A stretch of DNA of 63,825 bases, the filler included. It is 11 parts of 11 records of this genome, joined end to end, with 100 filler letters (N's around TTAATTAATTAA, not from the genome) between each part and the next. Parts side by side here need not be neighbours in the genome. Positions count along the whole stretch, not along the records: positions 46,244 to 52,521 come from SRR15195285_4053; 10 more parts are not named here. One strand, written 5' to 3'. A program made the translations under genes and the position numbers. Under the pieces are notes generated by a model that did no database searches, was not told the origin of the DNA, and worked only from the letters and a program-made list of their open reading frames with translations. This document shows positions 14 through 57,320 of this stretch, in pieces. Each line of letters begins with the position of its first letter. Positions within the stretch are counted from its first letter, which is position 1.

Positions 14-3000
14 ATGCAATACGACTCCGATTCGCATAATTCTGCCTTTGGCGCGGCATGGTTTGTGTCAGATCACATACTGGAGGCCTACAATGGTGTC
101 TACTCAGTGATCGGCAAACGTGATGGAATCCCGGTGTACCAGAACGAAGCCGGCATGTATATGTACGGTATCGACACTTCTTCTGTGCCGTACGGGTGGA
201 CAGTCATCCTGAAGACCAACGGAGACCCTACATTTCAGTATTCGTCACCACTTTGGAGTGACACTGAGTCCGTGTATAATCCCACCAGCGAGCCCCACCG
301 TCCTGGCAACGCCAAGTACGCAGCTTACAACACGCAGGCTTTCGACGCGATCAAGGCCTGTGTCGGAAATCTTCAAAACTGCTTGCCGGAGCATGAGTTT
401 GCTGAGCCGCTGACTAACGCAGCAGAGCTATTCGACGGCCGCAATAGGCGCGAGGGCGTGCGCATCGAGGACTTCGTGAACGTGTTTGGAATCGAGGACC
501 CTCGTGCAGAAGATGAGTGCGAGCCGCAGAAACCAGGGTTCAACAGTCAGTGCAATGGCAACAACAAGGTGCGGTGGGGCTACTGCGCAAACGTTGCAGG
601 GGAAGACTGTCAGAGTGAAGATGAGGAGGATGCTGATGGTGTGATTGGCTTTGGAATTCAGGGCGAAGACTGCTGTTCAGCAGGTGCTGGGTGGACAAGC
701 ATGTTTGCATCAATCACCAGTGTTGCAAATGCTGGACACGAAGGCAGTAATCAAGCGTGGCTTCTGGTTCGTGAGGCCGGACAAGGGGCAGGACAATCAC
801 GAGGGATCTCGCGCTCCATTGTATGCGAAGGGTTTACTCGCAGCAACGGACCCACGGAAGATTGGCCTGTGTCATTTGATGCGTTAGCTTCTAGTGGCAG
901 CTGCCAGCAAGGGCAGCAAGTAAACGGCGAGGCTCACTTTGATGCGGCAGAACAAGAAGGAGCAGTCTTGGCCATCGAGCTGAGTGAAGCTGCACCCCCG
1001 GAAGGGATATATATAATGATCATATCTAGTGACTCCACTAGCTCCGGAAGCGAGTGGTGCTACGGAACCTCCATAGATGGACTTCAATGGGGCCAGACGT
1101 GCCTTCCAGGGTTTGTGGAGACCGTGTCCGTTCCTGCCAACGCTCGATATCTGTTTGTGTGGAATGTCTCCCCCGCTTCGATCCGCGGCATCCGGATAGG
1201 TAGACCAGTGCAGTGGCGCTTTCATGATGAACGTCCTTCCGGCGACACGGTCGACAGATTGCATGGCGGCTTCTTCGAAGGCGATCTCCGAGCAACAGCT
1301 TCGCACGAGCTGCGCCCGTGGTGCACAATTCGGTCGTGCCCAGGTGAAGCTACGCTCGGTACGATCCACGTATTGCCAGCCACACGACTCGAGCTGGACA
1401 GAGACGAAGACTCGGAGCGACTCGCTGCTGTACTGCAGAGCAACAGATTCGCACAACAGGTGGCACAGTCAGGCTACTCGTGGTCGCAGGTGGAGCATAC
1501 GTGGATTGATGACAGTGGACATGAGGGTGACAATGGTGTGTTCCACGCAGTGGCACCTGGCGACTGGACTGCAGGCTCTGCATTTCAGCCTGCGGTGGTC
1601 CACCTCGGCCCCACATCCTATCGTGTCCTTGACGGATGTGCACCGGGTCTGTCCGGGCCGGGATGCAGCCTGGGATATCTTGAGGAGATGCAGCCCACCG
1701 GTGGAGATGGTGGTAGCGGACACATGTGCCCTGGCTGCACCGAGGAAACCGCCGTGGGGTGGCTTCCGCCAAATGGACTCACGAGCCCTTATCAGCCGCT
1801 CTGCACCACTGTGGCTAGGCCAGTCCGGTTGTCGACTACTCGAGCAGCACAATACAGCCCAAACATAGATCGCTGCGTACTCGTACAGGCGCCCTATGGT
1901 CTTAGGGTGCGAGTTGCGATCGACTCGTTCCAAACAGAAACCGATTATGACTACCTGTTCCTGTACGATGGACGCTCTGAGGCGGCACCGCTACTCGGGG
2001 ACAGCGGCAACTGCTGCCCAAGAGCTGGAGGATGCGCATCACTGCTTTATCAAGGTGAGTGTCATAAGAGCTGTCGCCGTTTGCACCACAGAGTTCGTGC
2101 AGTGTCTGATCTGTGACGTGTCTGCCGTGGACTTGCAGGCTTGACGCATCCATGTGTGCCAGGAAAGTGCGGCCTAAGTGGTGATAGACCGGTACGTGCT
2201 CAAGCATGCTTCGTGTCGGTGTTCGTGATGGTTCCATATCCTCACGTGCGCATGGGTTTTGGTACGGCCTAGGTTCAAGACGACCTCGTGACAACCAACA
2301 ACACTTTGTTCATCCGCTGGAACTCTGACTGCGGTGTAGAGCGTGCCGGCTTTTCACTTCACATTACATTTGAAGCAGACGGAAGACGGGCATCTGCTGT
2401 AGCGGGCCGGGCGGCCGCCTGCTCAGGCATACCGCTGGATGTAATCGGTGGCGGTACCATTAGCAGGCTCAACTACGGCAGGAACGAGAACTGCCAGTGG
2501 AATCTGGTGTGCGATTACGGCGACCTGCCGGTACTGAAGTTTGTGCTCTTCAGTCTGGAGCAAGACTTTGACTTCGTGCACTTCAGCAGCAGCGATGGCA
2601 GTGAACCTGTATCGCTGACAGGTCGTAGCATACCCACCGATCTTGCTGGTCTTGCGGGGCAAACGGCGACGCTAAGCTTTGCCACAGACGGGTCCGTAAG
2701 CGATGCTGGATTTGCTGCTACGTTCACGTGTGCAAACGGCGTAGATGCGGGTTCACTCCCGGTGAACTGGACTCAGGCGGAAGCTACCTGCATTGCAGCA
2801 GGCGGACATCTCCCGTCGATTCACTCTGACGGCAACGCGGACGACGTCCGTGCCCTCGCCAACGGGCGGGATGCGTGGATTGGGCTGCGCACACCGTGTG
2901 GAGCAGGACGCGACGGCTTTGGTTGGAGTGACGCCTCTGCCGCTGACTATGAATACTGGGCGCTCGGGCAGCCTGATGGCTGGATGAGTACTGGTGCCTG

Positions 3001-6000
3001 CGATGGCAGCGGTGGGGCTGGCATCCTCACGGACGGTCTGCAATGGAATGTGACCAGTCCCAGTGAGCTGCATTATGTGGTCTGTGGATTCAACGAGGCA
3101 TGGATCAGCGCAGATTGGGCACAGAACGGTTTCATCGAGTACGATCTGCCTTTCGTCTTTCCGTATTTCGGATCACCTCAGACTTCGGTTATCATATCGT
3201 CCAACGGATTCTTGGTTTTCAACTCCTTTGGAAACCGTGTTCCTGATATTGGCGTGGATCAGAGCACATGTCGACTGCCCAACGCTGGCGCTTGCAGCAG
3301 CAGCGGGACGGCTGGTGCTCTGACCGTGACCAACAACATACTGGCCGTGATGTGGACTGACCTCGACCCGCTTAGTGGTGGAATCGTGACCTTCTCCGCA
3401 AATCATTCAGTGGCGATCATCAGCTTTGAAGACGTGCCTTTTGCTGGAGCAACGGAAGAGCACGACGAGACGAACTCGTTCCAGGCAGTCCTACACGCGG
3501 ATGGCACCATTGAAATGAATTATGCAGCTGTGCCCTCGCAATTTAACCACGATGGTGAAGCATCTCTTGATTCACCGTCCATTGGATTCGAGGATGGCAG
3601 TGGCCTTTTTGGGTCCCAGCTTGCCTTCGGCGTCAGCGACATTCCTGCATCCTCGACATCCTTTCGCATTCAACCGGCCTCAGCACCTGTGCTCGTCAAC
3701 AGTGATGTAACACTGACTCTTAGTGGGCTAGAGGTTCACATGCGCTACCGACTGCAGCTTCTGTATTACGAGAGACGCTGCTCAACTAGCTTCAACGTAT
3801 TGGCAAATGGTCAGATCATTGAGACTGCCGTCAATCCAGCGCGCCTGCAGGGTCAGGTGGATGCAGCAACAGATGCAGCGTTTACATCTTACGAGTTCAC
3901 AGCAGAAGGAGCAGTACTTGACCTGCAGCTAGTTCCCGTCGATGGCCAAGACTGCAACGAACCGTCGCTGAGTGCAGTCACGTTGGAACACGTTGATTCA
4001 GAATCACGGATGGTAAACCTGGCCCGGGGCCTAGCAAACGGACCCTGCCGCGTCGGAGATGATGCAAACGTGGTTGCTTGTGGCCACTCTCGGCAAGCAG
4101 GGGTGTCTGAGAATGGGAATCCTGGCCGTGCGATCGATGGAGATACCAACACTGACTACGGATACGGGTCGTGCACGCAGACGAATCCCACGTCGTTGCC
4201 AGCCTGGTGGCAGCTTGACCTGGGCGCAACGGCTGTCATCGATCATGTCTCTGTGTACCACAGAACAGACTGCTGCCAGGATCGGCTTCAGCACGCGCAA
4301 ATAATCGTGAGCGCAACTCCCGACTTCAACCACGGAGTCGTCTGCAACCCACTCAGTGATTCCTCTGCGGTGCCTGAGATGGCGTCTTGCAGGCACACTT
4401 ACGGTCAATATGTCACCATCGCATCGGCTCACACGCCATTTCTGACACTGTGTGAAGCAGAAGTATGGGGCTTGCGAATCAACGATACAGCAGTCCTATC
4501 GCAAGCGACCCTTGCTGCAACACCGGCTGCATCGCAAACCATTGCTACGATCACAGATTTGGACCTGCATGGGCACTTCAGCCTTGCAGTCAACGTAGGA
4601 GGGTCCAGTGAACCACCTATAGGTGATGCAACGTTTCTGGACGAGAGTGCCGCCAGGCATGCTGTAGACCTCAACTACACGTGCAGGTTTGTGGCTGGGC
4701 AAGGGGTAGGAGGCGCGGAAGCAGTTGTTGGTAGAGTCGCAACAGCTGAGGAGTGCGCACATCTCGTTCGTGCACGGCAGCCTCATGCAAACGGTGCCAC
4801 GTTTTCCAATATAGGCGGCTTCGACTGCTTCGCGGAGTTTGACATGATCGCCGCAGACGGCAATGCGCAGTGGATGACCTGCTTGTTTGACCATGACGAC
4901 GAGCTAGCGCAGCAAGAAGAGCTGTTTGTCTGCGAGTTCGAGCGAGGCAACGGCATGAGCGAGCGAGACCAGCTGGTGGGTATTGCCGCAAGCATGCAGG
5001 CATGTGCGCAGATGGTGATAGCGATGCGCCCAGACGCAAATGGTGCGTCACTACCACGTACAGGTACTGGAGAATGCTTTGCTGAATTTGGAATGACAGG
5101 ATCCGACGGCTCTCCTGGCTGGACCACGTGCCAGTTCCCGCGCCATGGGTCTTGCAGTGCAATATTCGAGACCGACCCGTCGTCGCCGAGCGGAACGTAC
5201 ACGATTCTTGCCGCGGGCAGAGCGTTGCGAGTCCACTGCGACATGAGTGATGGTGCGTGGACACTAGTCCGAAAGACAAGTGCGAGCCCATCTCACGTAA
5301 TTGATGCAGATCGGTTGGCGGGGCCAGAGGGTGCGCTCAACACTTCGTTCTCCGGCTCTCTGCCAACCTCTGCGGTGGTGGAGCTGTGCACTGGGAGGCG
5401 CAAGATACTGCCGCCATCTACCACGGAGGTCCATCAAAATCCGATAGTTGGTCATCTAGCATCTCATCTGCTCGGGTACTGGTCCTTCGAGGACGGGGCT
5501 GGAGACGTAGCGATAGACCGGTCAGGGCATGGGCGCGATGTAGATCTCCTTGCCAGTGCTCAATGGGTGCCGTCCGTCCAAGGTGGTGGATCGTACGCAA
5601 TGATGAACGGCCGTTTCGAACAACCGGGCCATGTAGGTTCGGCGGTAGGATTACCATCCGGTACTGCGTCCCGAACGGTCATGGCCTGGGTCAAAGTCCC
5701 ATCCAATGGGCCACAGGTCGGAGATTGGCAAGCTTTTGTTGGCTACGGCGTCGGGCAAGGAAACAAATGCTTCGTTTTGGGTATGATGAGCAACGGGAAC
5801 TACATGCTGGACCTATGGGCTTCGGACTCAGAGTTCGGGCCCGGGACGAGCCAGGGGCGGTTTTCAAACACAGATGCCCGAGACGATACCTGGCACCACG
5901 TGGCCGTTGCCTACTCGGAGTCCTTGCCGTTAATGGCGGGGTACGTGGACGGCTCGTTGAGCTTGCAAGGTAGACCGGATCGGCTACCGCACACGGACAT

Positions 6001-7099
6001 TAATGGTGGTGCTCTTGTTTTCGGGAGGTACCCTCCTCCCGGTGGCGGCGGTTCATCCTTGATGTTCAGCCTCGACGAGGTGGCCATTTTTGATAGTGCA
6101 CTACTCGATGACGACATCGATGCCATCTACAACGGCGGTCAAGGAATGGATAGCGCAGAGCATGGCCCCTTGCTCGATCCTCTGTGTGGCTACAACGCCC
6201 AGCAGTGGTGCCAGCCGGAGCCTGGCGATAGATCATTGGCAACAATGTGGCGGCAGCGAATCCCAGGCTGCGTGACGAATCATCGCATCACGCTCTACCC
6301 GCGCCAAACGCTCGCGCTGTGTAAGGCCAAGTGCGTTGGAACCACAGAGTGTCTTGCAGTTGTCTACCGTCCTTTGGGAGAGGAGCCGACTGAGCGTCAG
6401 TGCAGCCCATCATCGTCTCAGTCCACGGGCGATGAATTGGCGCCTGGCGACTGTGAGCTGGTCGATAGTATCGATCCGGCTGGCTGCGATGCGATCACAC
6501 TGAGCCTCGAGCTACACGTACGCCCGCAGCTGGACGGGGGCTCAGTTAGTGTTGACTTTGGGCTAGGTACCGCCGGAGGCAAGTGCCATCAACATGCCGA
6601 CTGCTCCCAGGGTCACTACTGCAATGCCGCCGCTCACTGCGACCCATGCGCCGGAATTACTGAGGATGCATGTGGCATTGCTTGTCCGATTGGGGCCCAC
6701 TGCGATTGCTGCGATGATGCAGAACTGCTCGCCCGATGCCCGCCCAGGGACTTTCCCGGCGTGGCAAGCAGGTGCGAAGCACAGAGGCGTCGAGATGGCG
6801 TACGAAATCTGCCAGAGGCAGCGCCAGAAATCGAATACCTGGGCTGTTGGGCTAATCTGCCACCAGCGACCCAATTCTTCGGCGTGGACCTGGAGATGCG
6901 ATGGGATGATGCGCGTGACTACTGTTTCCAACGGTATGGCGGCGACCTGGCGAGCATCCACAGTCCCCAAGACAACGCGCGAGTGATCGCTGAGTGTGCC
7001 AAAACGAGGGACCACCGGCACAGCACAGCGCAGTCTCACTACTGCTACATTGGGTTCAATGACGTGGAGATCGAGGGCCAGTTCGAGTGGAGTGACGGC
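14..7099 (+). CDS. Giant extracellular mosaic lectin/adhesion protein, 3'-partial and possibly 5'-partial. Exons 14-2054, 2139-2191, 2273->7099. Domains: fibrinogen/USOMP5-like, 2x CUB, C-type lectin, NIDO-like, malectin-like, F-type lectin, 2x apple-like, LamG, PAN, C-type lectin
   Basis: ORFs 14..2116 and 2288..7147 join in frame through GT-AG introns 2055-2138 and 2192-2272, completing a CUB domain (FQTETDYDYLFLYDG...GLSGDRP|VQDDLVTTNNTLFIRWNSD..GF). Motifs: WTQAEATC..GGHLPSIHS..AWIGL (CTL), RAIDGDTN..WWQLDLG..RTDCCQDR (FTP), GYWSFEDGAG..WHHVAV..LDEVAIF (LamG), YIGFNDVEIEGQFEWSDG (CTL). Confidence 0.85.
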
Positions 7100-7199
7100 N
7101 NNNNNNNNNNNNNNNNNNNNNNNNNNNNNNNNNNNNNNNNNNNTTAATTAATTAANNNNNNNNNNNNNNNNNNNNNNNNNNNNNNNNNNNNNNNNNNNN
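7100..7199. other. Artificial contig spacer
   Basis: 44 N + TTAATTAATTAA (stops in all six frames) + 44 N. Confidence 0.99.
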
Positions 7200-9425: not shown

Positions 9426-12400
9426 TTACGGTGGTGGCGAGCCAAGGCTCAAACGTAGGTCGCTGCCGAGATTACTGCTACTCAACCGCGGGCGGCTGTC
9501 CATCCGTCGCCGACGCGTAAAGCTCGTCCTGGGACTGTCGTCCCCCGAGCCGAGTGCAACCGTACTCGAGTCCGAAGACTGCACGTCTTCTTCGTCGTGG
9601 CTCTCATCGCCATCGTCTTCTACATCAAGCTCAGGAAAGTGATTTTCCATTGCTTCCATGAAACGAATCTGAAATGATTCAGCGTCTATGGCTGACAAGC
9701 CATCGATATCCTTCCCAAGCAGTAACTTTGCCCAGCGCTCCAGCTTCTTCGTTGTATTCCACTCCTGTAGGATGTCGATGATCCCAATGTTGTACGATGC
9801 TGCGGCCTTTCCCTGGTTTGGAAAGTAGGTAGGGCTACCAGTCCTTCGACGTGCGGTGTGTGTCAACGGCATCAACCTTTTCTTTATGCCCAAAAGCAAC
9901 GAGTAGTCCATGATCCCACGGCCGGTGGTGCTGAGGAATTTAGTGTCTTTGTACAACTGCGCCATCAATGCGTTTCTCTGGTCTTTCGGTAGGTAGAGCT
10001 GCTCGTGAAGGTCTCCATCTTTGAGAGTGCCAACGGCCCCGCTCTGGGCAGGGGGTCCCTTTGTAATGGTTGTTCGGTTGACCCACGATCCCTTCAAATC
10101 GTACTGCAGCATACTCTCTTTCAACACCGCGCCCGCACGCGCACGAAGCTGTGCTTCACTCTCCCGTTCCCCCTCTCCTCCAGCATTTGCTTGATCGTCT
10201 ACGAGCGAAGACACTTGTCGGATTTCATCCATTGTTTCTTGAAGAGAATCGTGGTTCAAATTTTCGAATACCATGAAGTAGAGCCGGCCTCGTAAGATAC
10301 TGCGCAGTACTGGAACCGAGGAGCAACCCTGATACATTTGTACCTGGTTGCACTGCACGACGCGCAGCAGTAGGCTGTCGGGGTTCTCGGTCATATACTT
10401 GTAGTATGAGTCCAACATCTTCAGCAACACATTTTTTTCCTCTTCCGTCATCTACTTGACTATGTAGCGTTTGTCTGCTGAAAAGTACATAAATGCTCCA
10501 GAAGCCCCCCCCGCTGAAGCTGCCGGCTTCATAGTGCTCCATGGCTGCATGTAGCAGGCCGTGGCGGTCATCGCTGCCACCAGCACTGCTCCCTGGTGAC
10601 TCGACACCGTTGCTGCCTGCCATGGCGATCAGGCACACGCGTTAGTAGACAATACACGCGGCCTGGACTCCAACACGCTCAAGCTACCTTGTGGTATTGT
10701 GTGTAAGCCATCGAACGCACCTTTGTGTGCGTCAAATAGCCGCCGCAATGCGGCAAAGGTTCGCGGCCGGTAGCTCTTGAACTTGAACTGTTCCATCTGG
10801 CTCTTCAACTCTTGCGGAAATCCGATTTCCTGGTCTTGACCTTTAAGAAATACTGGCTGAAAACTGCGGAAGAAAGCCGTCTCATGCGTCTTCTCATACA
10901 AGCCTGCCTCATCAAGCTTGACTGAGATCGACTCGTCTGGTGAGTCAACACTGACGCTGTCACGGTTGTACCCACCAGGACTTGCGTCTCGGACTGCCAT
11001 ACGTATCCCAAGACCCGTGAAGAACAGCAACTCATTCTGCAGGATTTCAGTCAATTCTTTCGCGTTTGTATCGTCAGCATGCTCTATTCCACCACGCTGG
11101 ACTTTCCATACCACCAACTGCCAGACAAGAGGCGTGATCGCATTCCTACCGCCTAGCACAAACGCCCAAATGACAACCCAGAAACGGTCCCCCAACGCGT
11201 AGTCGGTCGCTGCGTCTTGCATTCGAGTTTTCTCCATAATACTAGGGCTTCTTTGCAGTACCGAATGGTACAGGACGCCGAAGAGCACCACCCACCAAAG
11301 CCCACATACTACCGTCACCATAATGCCTTCCTTAATGATGCCCTCACGAACCTCTCGCTGACCCTGGGTTAGAGTGCGTGAGATGCGCAACTTAAAGTAC
11401 GAGTACAACGACACCAGCAACGCAACGAGATTGTAAAACAGAGAGAGACCGTAGACAAGGTTGCTTCCCAGGATTCCATTTCCGGTTAGGTATTCATTCG
11501 AGTTCGGTGCACTCGTTGCATTCAAGCGCCCGAAGTTTCTATGCCAACAAAAGTCCTCAAGGATAGAGTCAAATGAAACGCCCCAATCCCCACTGGCGTA
11601 CAGCCAGACTGCAAGAATGATTGAAACCGCCCAGGTCCATCCGTGGTAGAAGATCCATCTTTTTCGCGTCGACCCAAACGGGCTTGTGAGCAGATTGAGG
11701 AGCAGATCGATCGTGATCATGAAGAAGAATGAGTCCGTCGCAGTCCAGGTCAACTGAAATAGCACTGACATGGCCGCACAGTTGTTGACCGCGTAGCCTC
11801 GGTCTCCATCCACACCACCACCCATAGTTGATTGCGTGCGCGCTGATTCGACCTTTGCCCACGTTGGCCACCCAGTGTAAATAGAGAGCGTCGGGCAGTC
11901 CGTATAATCGAGCTGGCCGTCCATACTGCTCCTACTGTCCTCCAGTATGCATACATCCGCAGGAATCCTGAACGCTAGTTCTTGCAGCATAAAGCAGACG
12001 CAGTAGACAAGCTCTACTGCGGCAGCACATGCGAGTAGAGTTGTGATGCTGCGCTGCTGCAGGGCCTTGTTGAAGGAGAACGAGAAGATTACTTGACAGT
12101 TGCCCACGAACGACACCAGTACGCCAAGCATCATCGGAATGTGCTGTGAGTTGCGAATATTGTCGGGCCGTGCTGGACAGCGTTGCTGGTCACAGGGCTT
12201 GTACTGCATGCAGATGGAGCAGTCTTGCATCAGGTCTAGCATGGGGTCGTGAAGAGTTGACCGAGCACAGCATTCTCCCAAACCGGGGCAAAGCATTGCT
12301 CCGCTGGCATCACCCTGCAATTTGCAGGGCTCGCTTAGGTTGGACCGCGTCTTCGCATTGCAGCACTTGCACATCGGCTTCCAGTGCCCCTCTCCAGCGG

Positions 12401-13568
12401 TTTTGTTGACAAGGTCTTGGCGGTGCTCAATCATGTCCTTAAATGACTGTGACTTGCCCGTTTTTGAATCCTTAATCGGTGCGGATTGTTTACAATTCGG
12501 GTGCACCACTTCTCGAGTTTGATAGTCATGAGGGTATTCCGCACGGATCTGGACATAGCATGGGTCGAAAACCTGCTGGCCATTCTGCACTTTGAACAGG
12601 ACGCCTGTCCACATCACGAGCAAAACACACAAGACAATGCATCCACAGCATCCCTTAATGCATGCCTTTCGCTTGGCCTTGTATGACTTGCTGACTTGCG
12701 CTTTGACGACCTCGTACCCATCATCGTCTGCGGGTGTGGCCTTCCACATATTCCACACATCTTCCACCTCTACTGTGGGTGTGGTCTGCGCAGTGCTAGC
12801 TGCGTGAAGAAGCCCCATTCCGATGTCGTCTTCTGAAGCAGCGACGCTCGCAATCGGCCTAGCAGGTGGATGCTTGTCCATCAGCATGTTGTCCTGGACA
12901 CACACCATGAATATGTTCAACATTAGCGGACAGCAGACCAGCACCGTGACCTCAAACTCGTGCGGTTGACAGCCAAACGCTTGGGCCATTGTTGCCACAA
13001 ATATTGAGACAGGCTGATCCGTCCACGAGAGCGACCACCACAGTAGCAGATGAATCAACCCACGCACCGCTGCCGAAACGAAAATCCAGAGCACGAACTG
13101 CTTGGCCCAGGTGCGGTAGCTCACGCCGGCTGTTTTGGTACTGTATCGGCCCGACTGTCGCTGTCTACAGGCATAGAACAGCAGCACGTATGCTATGAGC
13201 ACGCCCAGCGTGGCGTTGGCCAGATAAACTAGCGCGAACCATGAGCATTCGTCGGTGGCGTTTCCCACGGGACTGTCCTCGTCTACCTGGTGCAAATGGC
13301 GGGCACCCAGCCCGGCTCCGATCTGTACCGTCGCGGCAGAGCCGGCGTGCTTAGCCGCGTCTAGCGCCCACACAATGTTGCGCTCGCTTTTTCGCCCGTG
13401 CCACCGCACCATCCAGCGCTTTGCGAGCACAGCGAGACCGACGACCACCAGCAGGAAAGGCTGCGCTGCCCAGAACCACCATTCAAGGGTGCAGTTGGGG
13501 TTCATGACGAGGTGTTTGTCGCAGTGCGGCCCGCCAATCTGCTTGAGCTCTTCGCACGTTGGGCTCAT
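9426..13568 (-). CDS. STIMATE/TMEM110-like domain + Cys-rich ectodomain + 7TM GPCR-like domain + PIP4/5-kinase (extended GPCR-PIPK). Exons 13568-10688 and 10616-9426; kinase N-lobe disrupted in this assembly
   Basis: STIMATE-like: WALDAAKH..DECSWFALVYLANATLG..SGRY..WAKQ..PLMLNIFMVCVQDNML. 7TM: CAAMSVLFQL..FFFMITIDL..WIFYHGWTW..DFCW. PIPK: FKFKSYRPRTFAALRRLF, GASGAFMYFSADKRYIVK, YDLKGS, IMDYSLLLG, IGIIDILQ, KKLE. G8 run at 10505-10512 and in-frame TAG at 10452-10454. Confidence 0.85.
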
Positions 13569-14079
13569 CTTCAGCAAAGTTTCCTATCAATCGGGCAGGT
13601 CCAACTCCACGCCTCCGCGCTGGTGGCAGCACTCTGTCTCGCAATGGGCCGCCGCGGCTGCTCGCCCGGCACACGCACACACCCTCCGTCCGTACAACCC
13701 CCCTCAAAGCCCGCGGCGCACACCACGCCGGCAGCGCGGCGCGCCTCAGCAGATCCGGGATCGTCTCGCGAGTCCTCGGACGACCCCCCGGGCGCACGAC
13801 GCTCACCTCGCGCTCGCGAGCGCCCGCCGCGGCCGCTCGGTGCCACCGGCGCTGCCGGCAGTGTCGAGTGTGCAGTGAGTCGAGCAAGGGGGCGGCCGAC
13901 CACTCACGAACACCGGCCCTGCCGCGTGCCGGGGGGAGGGTCCCACTGATTTCTCACACCGCCTCAGGCAGACGCATGCGCATGAGCGGAAATATTGGAT
14001 GTGAGAATCAGAATGAGCTCTATCTGCAGATCATCATCAGTATAATCAATAATGGCAATGCAGATCAGATTGTTGGTTC

Positions 14080-14179
14080 NNNNNNNNNNNNNNNNNNNNN
14101 NNNNNNNNNNNNNNNNNNNNNNNTTAATTAATTAANNNNNNNNNNNNNNNNNNNNNNNNNNNNNNNNNNNNNNNNNNNN
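14080..14179. other. Artificial contig spacer
   Basis: N44-TTAATTAATTAA-N44. Confidence 0.99.
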
Positions 14180-21713: not shown

Positions 21714-21813
21714 NNNNNNNNNNNNNNNNNNNNNNNNNNNNNNNNNNNNNNNNNNNNTTAATTAATTAANNNNNNNNNNNNNNNNNNNNNNNNNNNNNNN
21801 NNNNNNNNNNNNN
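21714..21813. other. Artificial contig spacer
   Basis: N44-TTAATTAATTAA-N44. Confidence 0.99.
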
Positions 21814-46243: not shown

Positions 46244-49200
46244 GCAGAGCAATATCCCACCCCAGATTCAACATGTCTACGTCTAGCACATGCCCGAAGC
46301 TTTCAGTACCATCGGGTTGATACAGCCTCTCACATATATGCTGTAGATCGTTGTGCGGAGGGTTGTACGAGCCAGTGGACCATGTCTTGAACTTGGTGAA
46401 GATCCAGAACAAAGTCAATACCAGAGTGTATACCAAGCACATTTCAGGTGTACCAAGCTGATGCCTGATGATCGATAGCGTCGAATCAATTCGTCGCACG
46501 TTACGTTTCTGCCCAGTTGCTGAGTTTACCTGTTCCATCTTTTCAACGTCAACCTGACGCGTGGACCCAGCAGGCAACCCGAGCCGGCGTGGGTGTGTAA
46601 TTTCGAAATTGACCATATCCTTCGATTCCTTTCGCCACTCCTTTTCTAGCCGCGCGCTGTCGTCGTCGCTGTACCGACTCCAAATGTATTTCGATCGTCC
46701 TCCCATGTCTTCGTCCTCCCAGTCTTCGTACTCCCATCGCTCAAATTCCGCAAACACCAAATAACACACGATGACCGCGATCACCAAACAACACACGGTA
46801 CCCCAAACTAGCCCAACCCAGCTGATGATGCAAAACCCAAGCAATATGAGTGCGCCAGCACAAGAGAATACAACCACCTGATCAATGAGCGAGCCTCCTC
46901 TCCGCTGGATGGCTGTGGAAGATGGCTCTCGGATATCCAACTTCGAGGTGCCGAGGTAAGCGGTGATGCTCAGTAGACCCACCGCTGGCCAAATCAACGA
47001 CCCGAACAGCCCCTGAAGCCCAATCGCCAATAGAGCAACTGGCAAAAGGGACTCTAAGAATTGCTTGTGCGCATCGTACTGCTTGTGCGCAAAGACTAGT
47101 GGTTTCAGCAATATCCAGATCGAATGGAGAAGGCATCCCACGATCAGCACAAACGGAGGCACCGCATTCACAAGCTGCACTGTGAGCATTCGTAGCTGAA
47201 GCAGATCGATTGCGGAGCACCAGACTATACAAAATACACAAAACGCTATGATGGTTAGTAATCGAAGGACATATCAACTTCGGTGATATGGCGTGTGGCT
47301 CACATCTGTTGCGTGCTGTGGCAAGCGTGCCTGCCGTTCCAGTGGGACCGGAGCTTGTTGGGGCTTCAACAGCGGTCGTGCGGACAGTCATTGCGTCCGA
47401 ATAATTGTCCACGCCAGTCACAAAGTAGTAACCAAACAGAGTCGTCATTAGAGCCCCAGAGAGCAGGTCCTTGTGAACCATAAATCCCGCGCAGATCATC
47501 ATGCAGCACAGCTGCAGACTTTGCCCGACCACAACGAACCAAGTCATTCTCGCGATCCCCTACGCCAAAAACAACCGTGTGGATAAAGTTGAATTGGATC
47601 AAATCAACAAAGGCAAGCAGTACTACCTGAAGGTAATGTGGTGAAAGTGGCTGACAACTCACCAATAAGTTTTGGAAAGAGAATTCCAGGCTGTCGGCGA
47701 GTTTCAGGAACCAATCCGCTGGTCTGCGCAGAAATCTCGGCAGTTTCTGGTAAACGCTCACGTCTTGCAATCGTTGCGAGGCCCGAGAACCCAAGGCCTG
47801 AAAGTCTTTTAGAGGTTCGACCAGCTTACGTTTGCTTTTGTCGCTCAATTTCAAGATTTGACGCTTGTCAGTAAACTTCCCCCGCTCATCTCCCGTTTTG
47901 TCTTCGCACCAGCTAAGGAACTCTTCAAAGCGCATGCCGTGCTCTACTTCGAGGTACGCCGATCGTGCTAACCCGAGCTCCTTGGCGTACTTCTTGATTT
48001 CACAAGCATCCAAATCCCTGCGGTACTCCGGATTGACCTCTTGAGACGAACGAGAATCAATCATAGACCAGATCCAGTCCTCGATGAATTCAGTTTCCTG
48101 TTGCTTTAGCTCAGCCTTCACTTCACTCTTGAGCAGCGCTACCGGCAGCACTAACATAACAAGGAGAATGATTATCCCAAGGAGTAGCAGAACGAGATAG
48201 GTCCCACCTACGTATGTCCAACCGTTGCTCAGTAAGATCACACCAACTTCAATAAGCACGGTCATGGTCAGAAGTGCCACAACAAGCCGTGCAAACAACT
48301 TGAACCCCGAGCTTCTACTCTCCGAATTGACATAACTGATGGCTTTTGCTTTGGCTGAGGCTGCGTCAATCACCTTGTGTGAATCGTGTTCATGGATCAG
48401 TTTGTCGATGAAATTGTCGTGCAGGTATCCGTGTAGATCTTCGAAGACGTCACTGACCCTCGCAACAGCGCTCCCACTTCTTTCACGCGTTCTATCTACG
48501 GGCGAAGGCAACACGTCGGCAACAATCCTCTTCCGGATATGGTTCGCAGATGTGTCCGTGGGTCCCATGGACCTGGAGTCCCTGCTACGAATAGCTTGCT
48601 GGTCGCGCAAGACATCCTCCATGGTCTTGTGCTTCAACACCGTCTTTAGAATCAGCGCAATCAGGGATGTACACGCTAGAACAGTCAGGTACGACGCATC
48701 GGGGGATTGGGAAGGAGAATCATCGTGAAGAGCGTGCGTAACGGTTGCCATAGGAATCCCAGCAAGTGACATTAGCGCTGTCCAAACACGAGTTTCGCAA
48801 TACGTTTTGTGCTCCCAGTGTCGCCAATCCAAAAAGAGTGTGCCCAAAGGAGGTGAAGTCAACGCGTAAAAGAACATGGCTCCACATGCCCATCTGAACA
48901 GTATTTTGGCGTCTCTCTTCAGCTCGAGATCAGGAAGCTCTGAGTCAGCTTTTTCGTGTCGAAAGGTGCGCAAGATTAGCCAAGTGAAAAGACACATCCA
49001 CACAGATGTGCCCTGGTGTGGATGCTGCCGTGCGTCTACGCCAACCCAGTAACACAACAACATGTACAGCAAACCCACTTGCATAACGAATACTCCACCC
49101 GCATGCCAGCACAGGCACAAAACATGGTCAAGCCAGCTTTCATCGCCGTAGCGAGGGCCGTACACCTTGGTGTTGGACGCTTCCACACCAGCGAGTGACA

Positions 49201-52123
49201 AGTCTTCAGTAGTTACAGGCTTTGGCTCCGCCTCCGCCTTCGCCTGCGCCTGCGCTGTGTCAATCTTCCACCGCGTGCAGCAGGCCATAGATGTAAGGAT
49301 GAAGTAGTCCGACCAAAAGTCATCTACCGGACACGGCCGGTAGTACTTTTGAAGGGTGACGCACTCGTTCGCTATGCCAAGCCAGACTCGCAGCGCGGGG
49401 TCTCTCGTCACCAGCTGAGTGGGGGGTGGGAGGAAATCCAGCCACGAGCAATCTGGTGGCCTACCCAGGTACACCAAGTAACGAACCCATAGCACAACAA
49501 GCAGCAAACCCATTTGATTCTGGCACACGCCCTTGGCAAACGCTCGACAAGTCCTTTTAAACCATTCTCGAAAGCACAGCAGCCCAAGAAGCAACGTCGC
49601 ACATATCGCACTTATGTAGGACCCACCAATCGCCCGACTGCTCAAAAGCCCGCCGGTGAGGTGGTTTCCCCATTTGAAAAATACCCAACCAAGTCCGACA
49701 ACCATTAAAACAACGAGAATCCCACACCAGAAAGCTTTGTTTGCATTTGACTGCAGTCCGTGGTGACGCTGGTTTGCGTGCTCCACTTCGCGTTGGGTCT
49801 GTGTATAACACACCAGTAGTAACAGGTATAGTCCACTGACAAAGTCGACCTGTCCGCGCAAGACTGGAGTACAAATCAGGAGCGCGGAAAAAGCAGGCTC
49901 AAAGATGGCCTTATCAGTAATCGTGCCGCGAATCCATATGAGAACATCTCGAACCTTCGCGGCAAACCAAACTAGCCCCACCAGGTCCACGTCCTCTTCA
50001 TGGTATTGCCCAGGGAGCGGCAAGTCTGCTTGCTGTGTGCCACCTTTGTCTTGGTCAGATGATTCGCTGAGCCAGTCGTGCACAGCCAACGATATCATCA
50101 CGACAAGTGGCACGAAAGTGGATTCGAGAGTGTCATACTTTCCATCGGGATTCTTGCGCATCACTTCTCCACGAAATCCAATCCACGTGAATGTTTGGTC
50201 CGCATCACAACCGAATATCGTCTCAAGTGTGGCAAACGGTAAGATTGATCCTTCTGATTCATACTGGGGAAACACTTGCTGCCAGTACTTCAGTTTCCAC
50301 ACGTAAACGCTTGTAAGATGCACCAGTGGGACAAACTTGCCGAATATGAGAAACCAGCCTTGGACGCATGACAAACTGCATTTCTCGGGCCAATTAGGGT
50401 GGCCCCAAGCAAACGTTAAGGTCGTACCCATGACAAAGTACACGAAATTGAACAAGGAGAGCTCAAAAGTGCCCATCCATACGATCACTGCAATACATGT
50501 GACTCGCAGTACCTGGTTACAGTCTTCCCTGAACACTGACTTGTTTTCCACGCACCGTTCGGACATACCCCTGACGCCGAGCGTTTCCCAGAACGTTTCG
50601 CCGAGCGTGTCCGAGAGCCTTTGCCAACCCATTCTCACGTAACGAAATGGATCGGTTTCTGAGATTTCAGCTTCCTTCTTCGAGCGTAGCAAAGAACCAG
50701 TGGCCACCAGTGCGAGCATCTCGGGCAAGATATCGATCGTCGCGCCCCCGTTTGTCGAGAAAAAATCTCCAGGATTTGTAACAAGTCCAATATCGTCGAG
50801 TAGATCGCGCGCCGAGTAATCCGGTGCCCAGTCCCGAAATCGTTGCCAGTTTTCGAGCCAATTTAACATGGTACATGCGGAGATGACATTCGTGCGGAAT
50901 AAGCGACGAAAGAGTTGAGACTTGTAGCAGTATTTCACGACAATGCTGGCCACCAACCAGGACTGCGCAAATTGCATCGCTCGCATGCGGCAACCACCGC
51001 GCTTCCACGTGAGTAAAATACCAGCGAGAACGAGAGTCACGGTCTGCAAAATCGTGCTGCCACCATCGTCGCGGCTCTTATGGTAGCGGGGTCCGTACAC
51101 AGATAGGAAGAGAAAACCAGTGGCAAACACGTGCTTGGCGTTTTCAATGAGAAGCCTGTCAGTTTCTGGATGAGCGGTCTCAGGGTCACCCCCACGCTCA
51201 GTCTCGTCTTCATCTTCGTCTTCGTCATCTTCAATCGAATTGATCTGTGCCCTTGCTTCCACTGCTTTCATCCAACAAGTGGTAGTGACCAGAGCCAAAA
51301 AAGGCAACCCAAACGTCCGCCACGAGTAGCCAAGCATATCGTCGCACATTCCAAAGTCGTCATATGGAGATGCGTCCGAGGAGTTTCTTGGGTGTTCACA
51401 CGCATCAATGCTAATGATACCGACAGATTGTTGCCACGTTCCCGGTTGGTGCACCCACGGAAAGTTCAGAGCGTACACAATGAAGAGCGATGCTTGGCAA
51501 GACACTTGCACCCATCGCACGAAGTGGCTTCGAATCCCACACAAGGCTATCAACAACCCTAGCAGGAAAAACCAGCAGTGGCCAAAGTCAAATTTGGCCA
51601 GGCCCGCGAAGAACATTGCAAGCATTGACAGAGCTCTGCAAACTCCGACGTAGGCACCCGCTGGAACTGATTCGAGGATACGTATTAGAATTCCCTTTCG
51701 AGCTTGGCAATCATTTTCGGATCGAGAGCACTTGTAAATCAAAAGCACCATCAGCAGTAAAATTAGCGGGCAGTAGCGCCACAGCATGCTCTCGTGAATG
51801 GCACCCCACGGGCCTCCTGTCCACCATAGCTTGCACATCTGCACAATCATTAAAGCGCAGAAGAGCGAGCAGTAAAGTGCACTTGCGAGGGCTCGGCTGC
51901 TGCTGGGCAGGCATGCCGTGCCTATGGGTGCCTGGGGCTCAGACACCGGCTGAGCGCCTGGGCTCGTTCTCGGCGGCGCCACTGCGTCGCCGCGAGAATT
52001 CAGGCTCGTGCTCCACGCGCTGAACTCAGGCTCGTCGACAGGAGCTGGCACGACGCCATGGTTCGGCTCGCCATCAGGGCCAAGCAGCGGCATCCTCTCG
52101 CTGGACATCGGCACGCGCGGCAT
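46244..52123 (-). CDS. PIEZO: Piezo-like mechanosensitive channel, 3'-partial, with an inserted WWE domain. Exons 52123-47663, 47559-47304, 47224-<46244
   Basis: More than 1,800 aa with over 30 hydrophobic segments in repeated 4-TM units; Piezo-like motifs LSLFNFVYF, FVSGLYLLLL, VRYLVYLGRPPDC, WLG..SDYFIL, QSLQLCCMMI..DLLSGALM..LFGY..RNRFW; the pore module lies beyond the contig end. Confidence 0.7.
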
Positions 52124-52521
52124 TTGACCTTCGTTCGATCTAATGCGGCGTTGCGAGTGTGCGTGTGCCCGCGCCGCCAATCGTCGCGATGTCCGGCGTG
52201 CGCTGCCTCGTGCTGTGCTTCACGTGCTGGTTTCCGTGATGCACGGCTGAGCCGCGCTGCTGACTTTAGCTGCAGGTATGGTCTTCCAGTACGACATACA
52301 AGATCCCTCGGAGTCGTGACGCTAATTGTAGTAAGAGCAGGAGGGGCAGCTGAGCTGGCGTTGATAGGTCGCGCTTTGCCAGCCTCCCTTCGCTCTCCGC
52401 GGCGCGGCCCACGCAGTCGGCGGTGCAGCCCCGGGGCGTGCGTACGGTATCGATGCGTGCTCCCGACCAACGGACAGGATCGCGTTGGATCGTGTGCGCC
52501 GCGCGCCGCGGGCCGCCGCGG

Positions 52522-52621
52522 NNNNNNNNNNNNNNNNNNNNNNNNNNNNNNNNNNNNNNNNNNNNTTAATTAATTAANNNNNNNNNNNNNNNNNNNNNNN
52601 NNNNNNNNNNNNNNNNNNNNN
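52522..52621. other. Artificial contig spacer
   Basis: N44-TTAATTAATTAA-N44. Confidence 0.99.
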
Positions 52622-54284: not shown

Positions 54285-57206
54285 TCACCCAGCTAATAGC
54301 TTGTCCAGCTTCGAGTCGAGGCTCGCTAGTGATGACTTGAGATGCTTTTGCACCTCAGCAATCTTCTCATTCAAAGCCTTTTCCGTCATCTGCACGGCGT
54401 TCAGTTCGGGGAATGCTAGTTCCTCCACGGCCGTCTGCTCATCCGCCGCCGTCACCCCATCCTCATTGTCATCTGACAAGATGTAAAAGTACTTCGCAAC
54501 AAGCTTTAACTCGTCCGGCCCTTTCGGCCAACTATCTCTGAACACTATCGGGCAGTCCTTTTTGTCCAGGTACACCAGGTCACAGTACGTGACCGCATCC
54601 ACGGTCCAATCTCTGGTGGTCTCTTCAATTTGCTGTTGCAGTGGTCTTCTCAATGCAGCTGAGAGCCCAAAGATAGGCTCGCGGTCCTCGTGCTTCACCT
54701 TGTGCGGAAGTTTGCGTGCCTCTGGCACTTGTCCGGTTCCGTTGATGACAACGGTGCCCGCCAAGAGAATGTAGAACCGTTGCCCGTACTGACCAGCCTC
54801 CACAATTGTATCCTTTGGGGCCTTCGCTTCTGTCCTGCTAGACATCCTGAAGGCCATCTCTTCCAAGAAGCTCTCAGGTGGTGGATCAATCTTGGGAATC
54901 CCAAATTTCTTCAAAAACCACCACTGCTCAAACTCTTCCATATCAATCGCGCCTTCGCCGTCAGCATCCATTTCTGCGAAAGCCGCTTGCATTTGTTCGG
55001 TCGTCATATGCATTCCCAGACGCGTTATGAGGCCCTCGATCTCCCCGTGGTCAAGCGAGCCGCCCCCGTCCGTGTCAGTCTCTTCAAACAGCTCCTTCAC
55101 ACGCCTATCTTCCTCAATACTGTCCTTCGCATGCCCCAGCATCTTGACATTGATGAGAGCAGGCTTGAACAGTGCAATTTTAATGCGCCGCTTGAGCGAC
55201 TCTGACAATGGAGCAAACCGCTCGTCGCCATCTTCGACTGTGCTCCCGGAGTTCGAATTAGCCTTGAAGTTGAGGAACGCGATCGTGGAGTGGATGAGAT
55301 CCATCGGGGCACCGTTGGACTTCATGAAGCCGATCACCTCGTTTTTAACATCATTGGCCTCCGCAGCCTGCTTCCCAAGGACGTCGTTGAGCTTATTAAT
55401 CTGGTCGAGCAACACAGCGAAAAACGACAGACCGATGACCTCGGCGAAGACCACGAAGATGATTTCAGGTTGAGACGCAGGACCAATGTCGCCGTATCCA
55501 ATGGTCGTCATTGTGGTAATCGCCCAGTACATAGACATGACGTAGGCATACGACCTGCCCATCAACGGTTTCCAGTCACCGGTCCCTACAATGGTTTCGC
55601 ATTCTCCATCGCCTACGTTGTATATTTTGTTCTCCTTGGTTACGCAGACTCCAGCGCCGGCAGCTGGGGTATTCACGCATGTGGAGGTGAAGCTAGTGTC
55701 GCCGACAGACGCACGAACACCTGCCTTGCCGCAAAACAAAGGAGACCCGTCAACACCATCGATATCGACATCATCGCGGGGCACAGCTGCAACACAGGCT
55801 GCTGAGCCACCTGACTCTAGTAACGCGCATACTCGTTTGCCGTCGGAATCGGGAGCGACGTATTCTATGCATTCATCTTTGTCGGTGCTGAAATCTCGGC
55901 TAGCGCAGATGTCAGCATACTTGGCAACACACGACATGATCGGCGCGCATTCTTCATCGCGCCCAGCCTTCAGCGTATCGTAAACAGGCATGCTCGGGTC
56001 CCACTCGTCAAAAGTCCCGTCTCTCCACGAGCTTTTCATACAGTCGCTTTTCATGTTCTCATACGGGTGACCCAGCTGATAATCCTTGCCAGGGTCACCA
56101 GACAGGTCGAGGTCGTCGTCAATGAAAGGTGTGCCATAGCCAGTGCACTCAACCAAGGTTGGCACCATGAAGAAGAAGCAGCCCAGAATGTGAGCACAGA
56201 TAAGCACGTATATGATAAACTTGGCGGCTTCAACGAAGCCCGTGTTGATAGTCCAGGATGCTGTCAGGCGGTGCACGAGCCTGCTTGCGCGGGCCAGACG
56301 TGCAACCTTGATCAGTCGCACGAGCCGCACGACGCCGCCGTCCACATCCTCGAAAAGAGCCCCGACAATGAGATCCCACTGCACAGTGGCGAGTATGTCC
56401 ACCCAGAACCACAGTGCTAAGTAGTTCTTAGCGATGACTTTCTTTTCGTACACAATTTCGTAGCCACGGTCGAAACCAGTCCAGAAGTTGAAAATGATGT
56501 CGACGTAGAACGCAACATCGATGGCGATGGCCCATGGTGACATGCCGGGAGGCTCGGTCGCGCGAAATTCGCTGTCCAACATGTGGACGTGGTAATCATC
56601 CGCGTTCACTTCCATGTTGTCTCCGACTACGAACGTCTGGTCGAAAGCGGCGTTGTACGGCTCCATGATGGAGCTGTAGAACACCAGGATGAGGATGAAG
56701 ACGTCCCAGGCGGTGTGGAACTTCGAGTACGGGTGGAAGTGGAAGCGCCAAAGGAACCGGTACAGATTTACGCACGGGTTCCGGCTTTTCTTTTGTTTGT
56801 CTAAGGCCTCAAAGATGGTGCTGGACCCCATGTCATCGACCACTTTGGACATCACCGCAACTTTCTTCACCGACTTGATCATCTTCATCCGTGCCGCCGA
56901 CTTGGTCTGCATACCAGTCAGGGGCTTGTCCGCAGTGTATCCCGTCATGCCCAAGTCCATCATCACGTTCTTCGCCTGGTCGGGTGGCGCTTGCAGCAAC
57001 GCTGCTATCCCGGACTGACCCGCAGGATTGGTCTTGGGCTTGGGCGCCATCGTGAACGGGTTCGCCTTCGCCGCGCTGGCGCCGAGCGCGGGCGATCCCG
57101 ACGCAGCCTGCATCGCTCCAGGTAGGAGCGCCTCAGGCTCCGGCGCCGGCGCCGAAGCAGGAGCAGGAGCATCTCCGCTTGCCGCATCCCCGACCACTTG
57201 GTCCAT
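54285..57206 (-). CDS. 6TM K+ channel of the EAG/HCN/CNG (CNBD) superfamily with a large Cys-rich turret and an inserted EF-hand pair; intronless
   Basis: FHPYSKFHTAWD (S1), DIIFNFWTG, YLALWFWVDILAT, S4 RLVRLIKVARLARASRL, filter TTMTTIGYGDI, C-linker LSESLKRRI, EF loops DTDGGGSLDHGE and DADGEGAIDMEE, CNBD GQRFYILLAGTV..IFGL..VTYCDL. Confidence 0.9.
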   Translation of the reverse strand: MDQVVGDAASGDAPAPASAPAPEPEALLPGAMQAASGSPALGASAAKANPFTMAPKPKTNPAGQSGIAALLQAPPDQAKNVMMDLGMTGYTADKPLTGMQTKSAARMKMIKSVKKVAVMSKVVDDMGSSTIFEALDKQKKSRNPCVNLYRFLWRFHFHPYSKFHTAWDVFILILVFYSSIMEPYNAAFDQTFVVGDNMEVNADDYHVHMLDSEFRATEPPGMSPWAIAIDVAFYVDIIFNFWTGFDRGYEIVYEKKVIAKNYLALWFWVDILATVQWDLIVGALFEDVDGGVVRLVRLIKVARLARASRLVHRLTASWTINTGFVEAAKFIIYVLICAHILGCFFFMVPTLVECTGYGTPFIDDDLDLSGDPGKDYQLGHPYENMKSDCMKSSWRDGTFDEWDPSMPVYDTLKAGRDEECAPIMSCVAKYADICASRDFSTDKDECIEYVAPDSDGKRVCALLESGGSAACVAAVPRDDVDIDGVDGSPLFCGKAGVRASVGDTSFTSTCVNTPAAGAGVCVTKENKIYNVGDGECETIVGTGDWKPLMGRSYAYVMSMYWAITTMTTIGYGDIGPASQPEIIFVVFAEVIGLSFFAVLLDQINKLNDVLGKQAAEANDVKNEVIGFMKSNGAPMDLIHSTIAFLNFKANSNSGSTVEDGDERFAPLSESLKRRIKIALFKPALINVKMLGHAKDSIEEDRRVKELFEETDTDGGGSLDHGEIEGLITRLGMHMTTEQMQAAFAEMDADGEGAIDMEEFEQWWFLKKFGIPKIDPPPESFLEEMAFRMSSRTEAKAPKDTIVEAGQYGQRFYILLAGTVVINGTGQVPEARKLPHKVKHEDREPIFGLSAALRRPLQQQIEETTRDWTVDAVTYCDLVYLDKKDCPIVFRDSWPKGPDELKLVAKYFYILSDDNEDGVTAADEQTAVEELAFPELNAVQMTEKALNEKIAEVQKHLKSSLASLDSKLDKLLAG

Positions 57207-57320
57207 CCGCGACAGGTCGCAGCGCGCGCGCTCCACACGCCCTGAGCGCCGCGCTCACGCGCAGCGCCCCCGGGGCCCGCGCGCCCACTCAGCTCCGTCC
57301 ACCTCCTTTTCCCTTCCCCC

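Follow-up and report, generated by a model that had tools for sequence, protein, structure and literature searches.

A WWE domain in a predicted Piezo-family membrane protein of an uncultured marine protist, a putative cytosolic reader of ADP-ribose-type ligands

Does a Piezo-like gene of a marine protist encode a WWE domain between its membrane helices, and what would such a domain do there? The question arises from a 63,825-nucleotide (nt) stretch of DNA (here called the window), composed of 11 contigs of 3.6 to 7.5 kb (guanine-plus-cytosine [GC] content, 0.53 to 0.60) held together by artificial joiners (N runs around TTAATTAATTAA), in which an earlier note had pointed to a WWE-like segment inside a Piezo-like protein. 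The gene in question sits on the minus strand of a 6.3-kb contig (46244-52521) and runs off the contig end. DNA of the stretch was partly present in 13 seawater metagenome runs (share of sampled words, 0.28 to 0.92), and the host organism is an uncultured marine microbial eukaryote (protist). Animal Piezos are membrane-tension sensors whose long cytosolic loops are mainly disordered, and WWE domains read ADP-ribose-type ligands. Here, we report that the segment encodes a genuine WWE domain, that the protein around it belongs by homology to the Piezo family, and that the domain may be a membrane-tethered reader on the cytosolic side.

The Pfam WWE profile (PF02825) matched residues 188 to 261 of the minus-strand translation of 46244-47273 with 35.3 bits (E = 1.6e-8), which is far above chance against a curated cutoff of 21.1 bits. 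With the first strand (RWEYEDW) counted in, the domain spans 46488-46739, in agreement with the 46490-46740 proposed in the earlier note, and the peptides quoted there (RWEYEDW..., YIWSRYSDDDSARLEKEWR, and RQVDVEKMEQVNSATGQKRNVRRI) are all present in that translation. The signature residues (W6, W24, and E36, numbered as in P0021) were invariant in an alignment with the relatives of the protein and a PARP-linked WWE protein. Searched against the PDB, the family profile found the WWE domains of DTX1 (E = 1.8e-4) and HUWE1 (E = 5.5e-3). Single-sequence phmmer searches with P0001 and P0021 against the same database returned a chance match to PadR only (E ~0.5), and profile searches were needed.

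Structure prediction gave the same answer. The WWE fold is described as a half barrel of six beta strands covered by one alpha helix (PMC11269756). The AlphaFold2 (AF2) model of the segment alone (46464-46751; predicted local distance difference test [pLDDT], 82.4) has the order strand-strand-helix-strand-strand-strand-strand, with strands at residues 5-12, 21-26, 47-50, 64-68, 73-76, and 82-88, a main helix at 29-40, and one short helical turn. Foldseek with this model against the PDB placed WWE domains at ranks 1 to 24 (probability, 0.99 to 1.00; TMt ≤0.75), unrelated structures beginning at rank 25. A second model, that of the 680-residue relative P0016 (built from nine sequences), had a pLDDT of 41 overall and of 70 to 82 at residues 150 to 235; a VIA scan with it against 48,161 PDB representatives filled rows 1 to 11 entirely with WWE domains, among them TRIP12 (Z, 10.4), HUWE1 (Z, 10.4; root mean square deviation, 1.7; 69 residues), DTX1 (Z, 9.5), and RNF146 with iso-ADP-ribose (Z, 9.1), with ZAP, PARP11, Deltex, and PARP14 also in the top rows. 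The fold check that the earlier note had called for thus came out as WWE with both tools (VIA Z, 9 to 10), and we conclude that 46488-46739 encodes a genuine WWE domain.

The host had been called Piezo-like in the same note, and this reading held up on sequence comparison; the AF2 model of the host failed. P0016 (label eukprot:COSAG02_NODE_61...) is 100% identical to exon 3 of the gene over the entire 315-residue overlap, continues for 365 further residues, and carries the Piezo_THU9_anchor domain (PF24874; cutoff, 28 bits) at residues 499 to 670 with 61.5 bits, in a region that lies outside the window, past the contig end. The same domain was found in all seven relatives long enough for the region (57 to 75 bits), and the family profile also matches the PEZO-1/Piezo1 chains 9uox and 9uoy (E ~6e-3 to 9e-3). 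The identity with P0016 and the above-cutoff PF24874 match together argue that the host, a very large and polytopic membrane protein, belongs by homology to the Piezo family. Its length up to the anchor is at least 2,264 residues, and the spliced protein has many hydrophobic segments, as might be compared with the nine four-helix units (36 helices) of the Piezo blade.

The Piezo anchor motif is PF(X2)E(X6)W. P0016 stops within it, at PFLMELVYLV, where an intron breaks every gene call; the following ...DW appears only in a read-through of the relative P0007, whose ...DW...EEIY presumably resembles the Piezo anchor. In a protein atlas, the best feature score was 0.79, to a THU9-anchor cluster, which we take as a lead only. 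One source names P0020 (287 residues; 99% identical to the P0016 C terminus) "protein-S-isoprenylcysteine O-methyltransferase Ste14"; Piezo_THU9_anchor (62.5 bits) is the only Pfam domain above its curated cutoff in this sequence, and the name is probably a mis-annotation.

The spliced gene model comprises 1,931 codons with no stops, or 1,899 residues counted from Met, in three exons (Table 1). Exon 1 encodes the mostly hydrophobic, divergent N-terminal blade region; its start Met is kept in four relatives, the conservation of which ends just past ...NLL/VS, at the GTGAGT donor. Intron 1 was introduced because exon 1 and the RNA-supported exon 2 differ in frame, so that a frame change is needed, and a TAG at 47562-47560 shuts the exon 2 frame on its upstream side. 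An RNA-library contig (X14, 47480-47638) is colinear through the predicted acceptor at 47560, which points to unspliced pre-mRNA or DNA in the library and leaves intron 1 without RNA proof. Exon 2 encodes two hydrophobic helices and a Thr/Ala/Gly-rich loop, terminating in ...ATARNR. Intron 2 follows from a contig that joins 47304 to 47224 (X16 record 12), and this joint yields the ...NRFW... junction that the earlier note had read as RNRFW; a 58-nt version of the intron, ending in CATCATAG, was ruled out by the same joint, which gives 79 nt. Exon 3, described in that note as the last exon, is the last only of those on the contig, which stops at 46244; the rest of the gene lies farther on, as P0016 attests.

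Is the domain part of the mature protein? RNA-library contigs without a joint lie at 46441-46654 (X14), 46500-46658 (X19, oligo-dT, 0 mismatches), and 46747-46890 (X15), and an oligo-dT contig (X19 record 15) extends past the contig end at 46244. No listed piece lies over 46659-46746, and a large part of exon 1 is uncovered, which is uninformative either way. Because RNA libraries may hold DNA too, the RNA contigs are moderate evidence for the WWE domain in mRNA. The stronger argument is that a single open frame spans the domain and both flanking helices. The domain is therefore not visibly spliced out, a possibility that the note had raised against itself: it lies in one open exon, the RNA-library contigs are colinear over 46441-46658, and it is in frame in four relatives. 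Its position between transmembrane helices likewise stands, hydrophobic helices being found on both flanks.

The side of the membrane can be predicted from the helices that follow. Piezo four-helix units (THUs) start and finish on the cytosolic side, and in animal Piezos the beam, which connects blade and pore, is located in the loop between the 7th and 8th units. Four hydrophobic segments separate the WWE domain from the Pfam start of THU9 (AF2 helices 248-271, 308-328, 393-413, and 444-467 of P0016), an even number that puts the domain on the cytosolic side. Lys and Arg residues together number 18 (WWE loop), 6, and 2 in the predicted inside loops and 1 and 1 in the predicted outside loops; the outer loop next to the contig end has 1 Lys or Arg versus 6 Asp or Glu in 36 residues. 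Just after the second helix there is an HRHRLLRR cluster, and the outer loops hold conserved Cys residues. The WWE domain is thus predicted to face the cytosol, four predicted helices upstream of THU9, and counting helices would place it at the junction of the 7th and 8th four-helix units (THU7/THU8). In the linker that leads from the domain to the next helix, ...LG(T/K)P(E) is kept even in relatives that have no WWE domain.

An exhaustive phmmer search with exon 3 among 1.84 billion representatives gave nine matches at E ≤0.001, and two further searches brought the family to nine proteins plus fragments. The insertion site is covered by eight proteins, with overall identities of 43 to 60%. 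Four have the WWE domain at this same site (P0016, P0017, P0007, and P0011), with PF02825 above the cutoff in each (32.7, 36.2, 23.6, and 32.7 bits, respectively); the other four (P0008, P0009, P0018, and P0019) have a loop of 13 to 16 residues in its place. The combination of Piezo and WWE, for which the earlier note had suggested looking in other protists, therefore occurs in P0017, P0007, and P0011 besides P0016. A tree built on 566 columns, without those of the loop and without P0020 (a near-identical fragment of P0016), splits the WWE-bearing from the WWE-less set (support, 100/98), so that one gain or loss suffices. Midpoint rooting nests the WWE-less clade among the WWE bearers and hints at a loss, in a tree without an outgroup and with P0011 on a long branch. 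P0019 shares its assembly label with P0016, their coverage figures being 36 and 741.

Two of the WWE-less relatives carry different inserts of their own. These are ~100 to 140 residues long and without a Pfam match, and they lie in the cytosolic loop directly before THU9 (residues ~400-510 of P0019 and ~440-585 of P0018). It appears that lineage-specific modules accumulate in different cytosolic loops of this Piezo family.

Whether the WWE domain could bind a ligand was judged from HMMER alignments to DTX1, HUWE1, and TRIP12. In the contacts described for WWE domains, the adenine shares two hydrogen bonds with a conserved Gln and is stacked against a Trp (in RNF146, a Tyr), and the proximal phosphate is bound by one Tyr and one Arg (PMC11269756). 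The window WWE has the adenine Gln (MEQ), the phosphate Arg (QKR), and at the stacking position a Tyr (RWEY), as in RNF146 (PMC11269756). W, W, E, Q, TG, and RR are identical in all WWE copies of the family. As read from these alignments, the ligand pocket looks mostly competent, though non-canonical. In two relatives, the first hairpin of the WWE domain is itself interrupted, by an ~85-residue insert without a Pfam match in P0017 (residues ~175-265) and by a Trp/Cys-rich short repeat (SWHLC-like) in P0007 (residues ~225-250), which makes for nesting of a domain in a domain in a channel.

Our preferred reading, to which we give a probability of about 0.5, is that the WWE domain, tethered to the membrane on the cytosolic side, reads an adenine-nucleotide or ADP-ribose-type ligand or else a partner that carries ADP-ribose, and that it modulates a Piezo-family channel in its gating, partners, or turnover. 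The ligand would be ADP-ribose, iso-ADP-ribose within poly-ADP-ribose, or ATP/ADP, an ADP-ribosylated partner protein being the alternative. Binding beside the pore-proximal blade would then alter mechanical gating, the partners, or the turnover of the channel. One clade of this Piezo family possesses the WWE module, its sister clade being without it. A bolder version, in which the domain would be a built-in chemical sensor, with ADP-ribose, poly-ADP-ribose, or ATP on the WWE domain shifting the mechanical gating threshold allosterically at the beam-lever site and so integrating stress-induced ADP-ribose signaling with membrane tension, seems unlikely as it stands.

Several observations weigh against a reader function. 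Where the phosphate Tyr is expected, the window WWE has an Arg (STRQV), and, on the alignment, the corresponding residue is Arg in P0007, His in P0017, and Tyr in P0011; P0007 also has a Leu at the phosphate-Arg position. The first hairpin of the window WWE is long and acidic (DWEDEDMGGRSK), and that of the relatives takes inserts of 13 to ~85 residues. The 17 long open reading frames (ORFs) of the window did not include a PARP, and the best Foldseek E value was only 1.7e-3. A phosphate Tyr replaced in three of four copies (and, in P0007, the loss of the phosphate Arg too), a highly variable and acidic hairpin, the unseen PARP, and the very short loop of WWE-less relatives, in which nothing else fills the site, would all suit a WWE fold that reads no nucleotide and instead acts, independently of ADP-ribose, as a docking or structural module, be it for a cytoskeletal or regulatory partner or as a stand-in for the beam or latch. 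We regard this as possible but rather doubtful, given that the adenine Gln and the TG..R.VRR tail are (nearly) invariant in all four copies, that the stacking aromatic is retained as Tyr or Phe, and that an Arg replacing the Tyr might still touch the phosphate. The distribution of the domain raises a related concern. Its absence from four of eight relatives means that it is dispensable for the core protein, and it is less conserved than its surroundings (identity, 27 to 46%, versus 44 to 59% for the complete C-terminal region). A neutral or decaying insertion, a WWE-coding piece that one lineage of Piezo paralogues tolerates in a permissive loop, would account for both facts (the helices being better conserved than the WWE domain) and for the extra inserts tolerated within it in P0017 and P0007. 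It is nevertheless improbable, as the domain is in frame, its signature and ligand residues are invariant down to 43 to 45% identity, including in the longest-branch P0011, PF02825 is above the cutoff in every copy, and the fold is predicted confidently.

Other points bear on the channel and on the place of the domain in it. The window's own Piezo match, Piezo_TM1-24 in exon 1, is subthreshold (16.2 bits; cutoff, 28.8) and appears, weakly, in two of five N-terminal family members; the N-terminal ~1,500 residues belong to a divergent family of few members (four matches in the search), the profile of which matched nothing in the PDB at E ≤1. No pore module (outer helix, cap, inner helix, and C-terminal domain) was seen in the sequences obtained for the gene and its relatives, which end at the anchor, and two metagenome contig scans for the downstream exons via the relatives' DNA (with the family alignment and with P0017) gave pattern matches, 0 of them confirmed. 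A helix as long as the beam would not fit into the loop that lies four helices ahead of THU9, and the Piezo beam connects transmembrane helices 28 and 29 (PMC12951647); as the helix numbering is by counting only, the beam may lie elsewhere. Weak matches to PF23188 in five relatives (18 to 20 bits; cutoff, 27.2) would favor another helix register and were not used because they are below the cutoff and in conflict with the count from THU9. The membrane part of the AF2 model is unusable (pLDDT, 41; shallow alignment), so that the THU7/THU8 placement depends on helix counting. On the strength of the unseen pore, the barely recognizable N-terminal blade, and the missing beam-length helix, the host might be a Piezo-derived membrane protein that is no longer a mechanosensitive channel, with the WWE domain regulating something else. 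We hold this to be distinctly improbable: THU9 and the anchor are strongly conserved in seven relatives, and the gene calls stop at a conserved intron in the anchor motif and not at a stop codon, P0007 continuing into anchor-like sequence. An artefact is hardly credible, be it a chimera of the assembly or a segment (intron or alternative cassette) that the mature mRNA lacks. The window is pieced together from short contigs, one of the RNA-library contigs is genomic or unspliced, and 46659-46746 lies outside the listed RNA contigs, but the same architecture is present in P0016, which comes from an independent assembly, and in three relatives of other origin, the 13 DNA runs contain sampled words of the stretch, and the domain shares its open frame with both flanking helices, with no joint reported inside it.

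Table 1. Coordinates in the window of the Piezo-like gene, of its WWE domain and neighboring segments, and of the joiners
Feature	Position	Strand	Remarks
Exon 1	47663-52123	-	ATG of MPRVPMSS... to ...EFSFQNLL; ~1,487 codons; within open frame 47366-52219
Intron 1	47560-47662	-	103 nt, GTGAGT...TAG; inferred model
Exon 2	47304-47559	-	85 codons + 1 base; 3' end set by RNA joint
Intron 2	47225-47303	-	79 nt, GT..AG (CT..AC on + strand); RNA joint
Exon 3	46244-47224	-	Cut by contig end; helices, WWE, one helix, Cys-containing outer loop, start of next helix (GWDIAL)
Helix pair before WWE	46752-46889	-	LIDQVVV...CIISW and VGLVWG...CYLVF; hydropathy segment 1682-1736 of spliced protein; AF2 helix 101-146 of P0016
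WWE domain	46488-46739	-	84 residues, RWEYEDW...NVRRI; predicted cytosolic; in frame inside exon 3
Linker from WWE to next helix	46443-46487	-	DSTLSIIRHQLGTPE; AF2 helix 237-245 of P0016
Hydrophobic helix after WWE	46389-46442	-	MCLVYTLVLTLFWIFTKF; first of four ahead of THU9
Predicted outer (non-cytosolic) loop	46260-46388	-	Conserved Cys and ERLYQPDGTE motif; 7/7 aligned relatives
Artificial joiner at the Piezo-like gene	46144-46243		N runs around the joiner sequence; no strand; non-biological; cuts off the Piezo-like gene
All joiners	7100-7199, 14080-14179, 21714-21813, 25413-25512, 29203-29302, 33820-33919, 38798-38897, 46144-46243, 52522-52621, 57321-57420

Genes on opposite sides of a joiner need not be adjacent in the genome. 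A tblastn search of the window with four relatives for other pieces of the Piezo-like gene found the 46244-52521 locus only. On a separate contig, a long ORF at 54285-57254 (minus strand) with Ion_trans (79.5 bits), Ion_trans_2, and an EF-hand pair encodes a voltage-gated-type cation channel with a Ca-binding tail. The contig that adjoins the Piezo-like one in the window has two abutting minus-strand ORFs (43142-44257 and 44248-46062) with halves of the GH65 central catalytic domain (profile positions 155-346 and 6-155), a single gene broken by a short intron or frameshift. Elsewhere, a PIP5K kinase domain ORF (9426-10451, minus strand) shares its contig with a 984-residue ORF with a STIMATE domain (10629-13583, minus strand), and a 1,608-residue ORF (2273-7098, plus strand) combines CUB, C-type lectin, F5/8 type C (NedA-like), and Laminin_G_3 domains, an adhesion/lectin architecture of animal type on a protist contig.

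Among known systems, the mouse and human Piezo1 and Piezo2 and Caenorhabditis elegans PEZO-1 (PDB 9uox and 9uoy; PMC12951647) resemble the protist protein in being very large and polytopic, with THU9 and an anchor that starts PFLMEL.... Unlike these animal Piezos, the protist protein has a globular WWE domain, and no beam-length helix, in the cytosolic blade loop, and its N-terminal ~1,500 residues are almost unrecognizable. With the WWE domains of RNF146, HUWE1, TRIP12, DTX1/Deltex, and PARP11/13/14 (PDB 3v3l, 6miw, 9bks, 8r5n, 2a90, and 2dk6), the window WWE has in common the fold, the W-W-E residues, the Gln, and the Arg; it differs from them in its host, an ion-channel blade and not an E3 ligase or PARP, in having both domain ends tied to membrane helices, in the exchange of the phosphate Tyr for Arg, and in its longer, acidic first hairpin. 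TRPM2, a cation channel with its own cytosolic ADP-ribose-binding domain (NUDT9-H; PMC6759353 and PMC11479946), serves as a working analogy only: neither its channel fold nor its ligand domain (Nudix versus WWE) is related to that of the protist protein, and gating by ADP-ribose, demonstrated for TRPM2, would be a prediction for the protist protein. Piezo genes of other unicellular eukaryotes have been described from Trypanosoma cruzi (PMC12124754) and in a survey of pathogenic protozoa (PMC3681921), the titles and abstracts of which mention neither WWE nor another inserted reader domain.

Piezo and WWE are each known; their combination is not discussed in the literature searched. Judged by title and abstract, co-mentions of Piezo with WWE were incidental only, and among the matches listed for Piezo1 with ADP-ribose or PARylation, no direct regulation appeared in titles or abstracts. 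No globular ligand-binding domain in animal Piezos was listed in the literature searched. Precomputed database Pfam labels place PF24874 and PF02825 together on three proteins, so the architecture has been visible to machines, yet it is undescribed in the literature searched.

What the locus may mean follows from the two partners. As WWE domains read ADP-ribose-type ligands, the protein would link ADP-ribosylation signaling and mechanotransduction, which are unconnected at the protein level in the literature searched. WWE-bearing sequences number four so far, the pore is unseen, and the function is a prediction. A conserved WWE domain between two blade helices, near THU9 and the anchor, would be a natural chemical or posttranslational input to a force-sensing blade. 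The WWE-plus and WWE-minus clades are a natural paired comparison. If a ligand-gated shift is true, this would be the first ligand-sensor domain within a Piezo blade and would offer a template for chemogenetic Piezo design.

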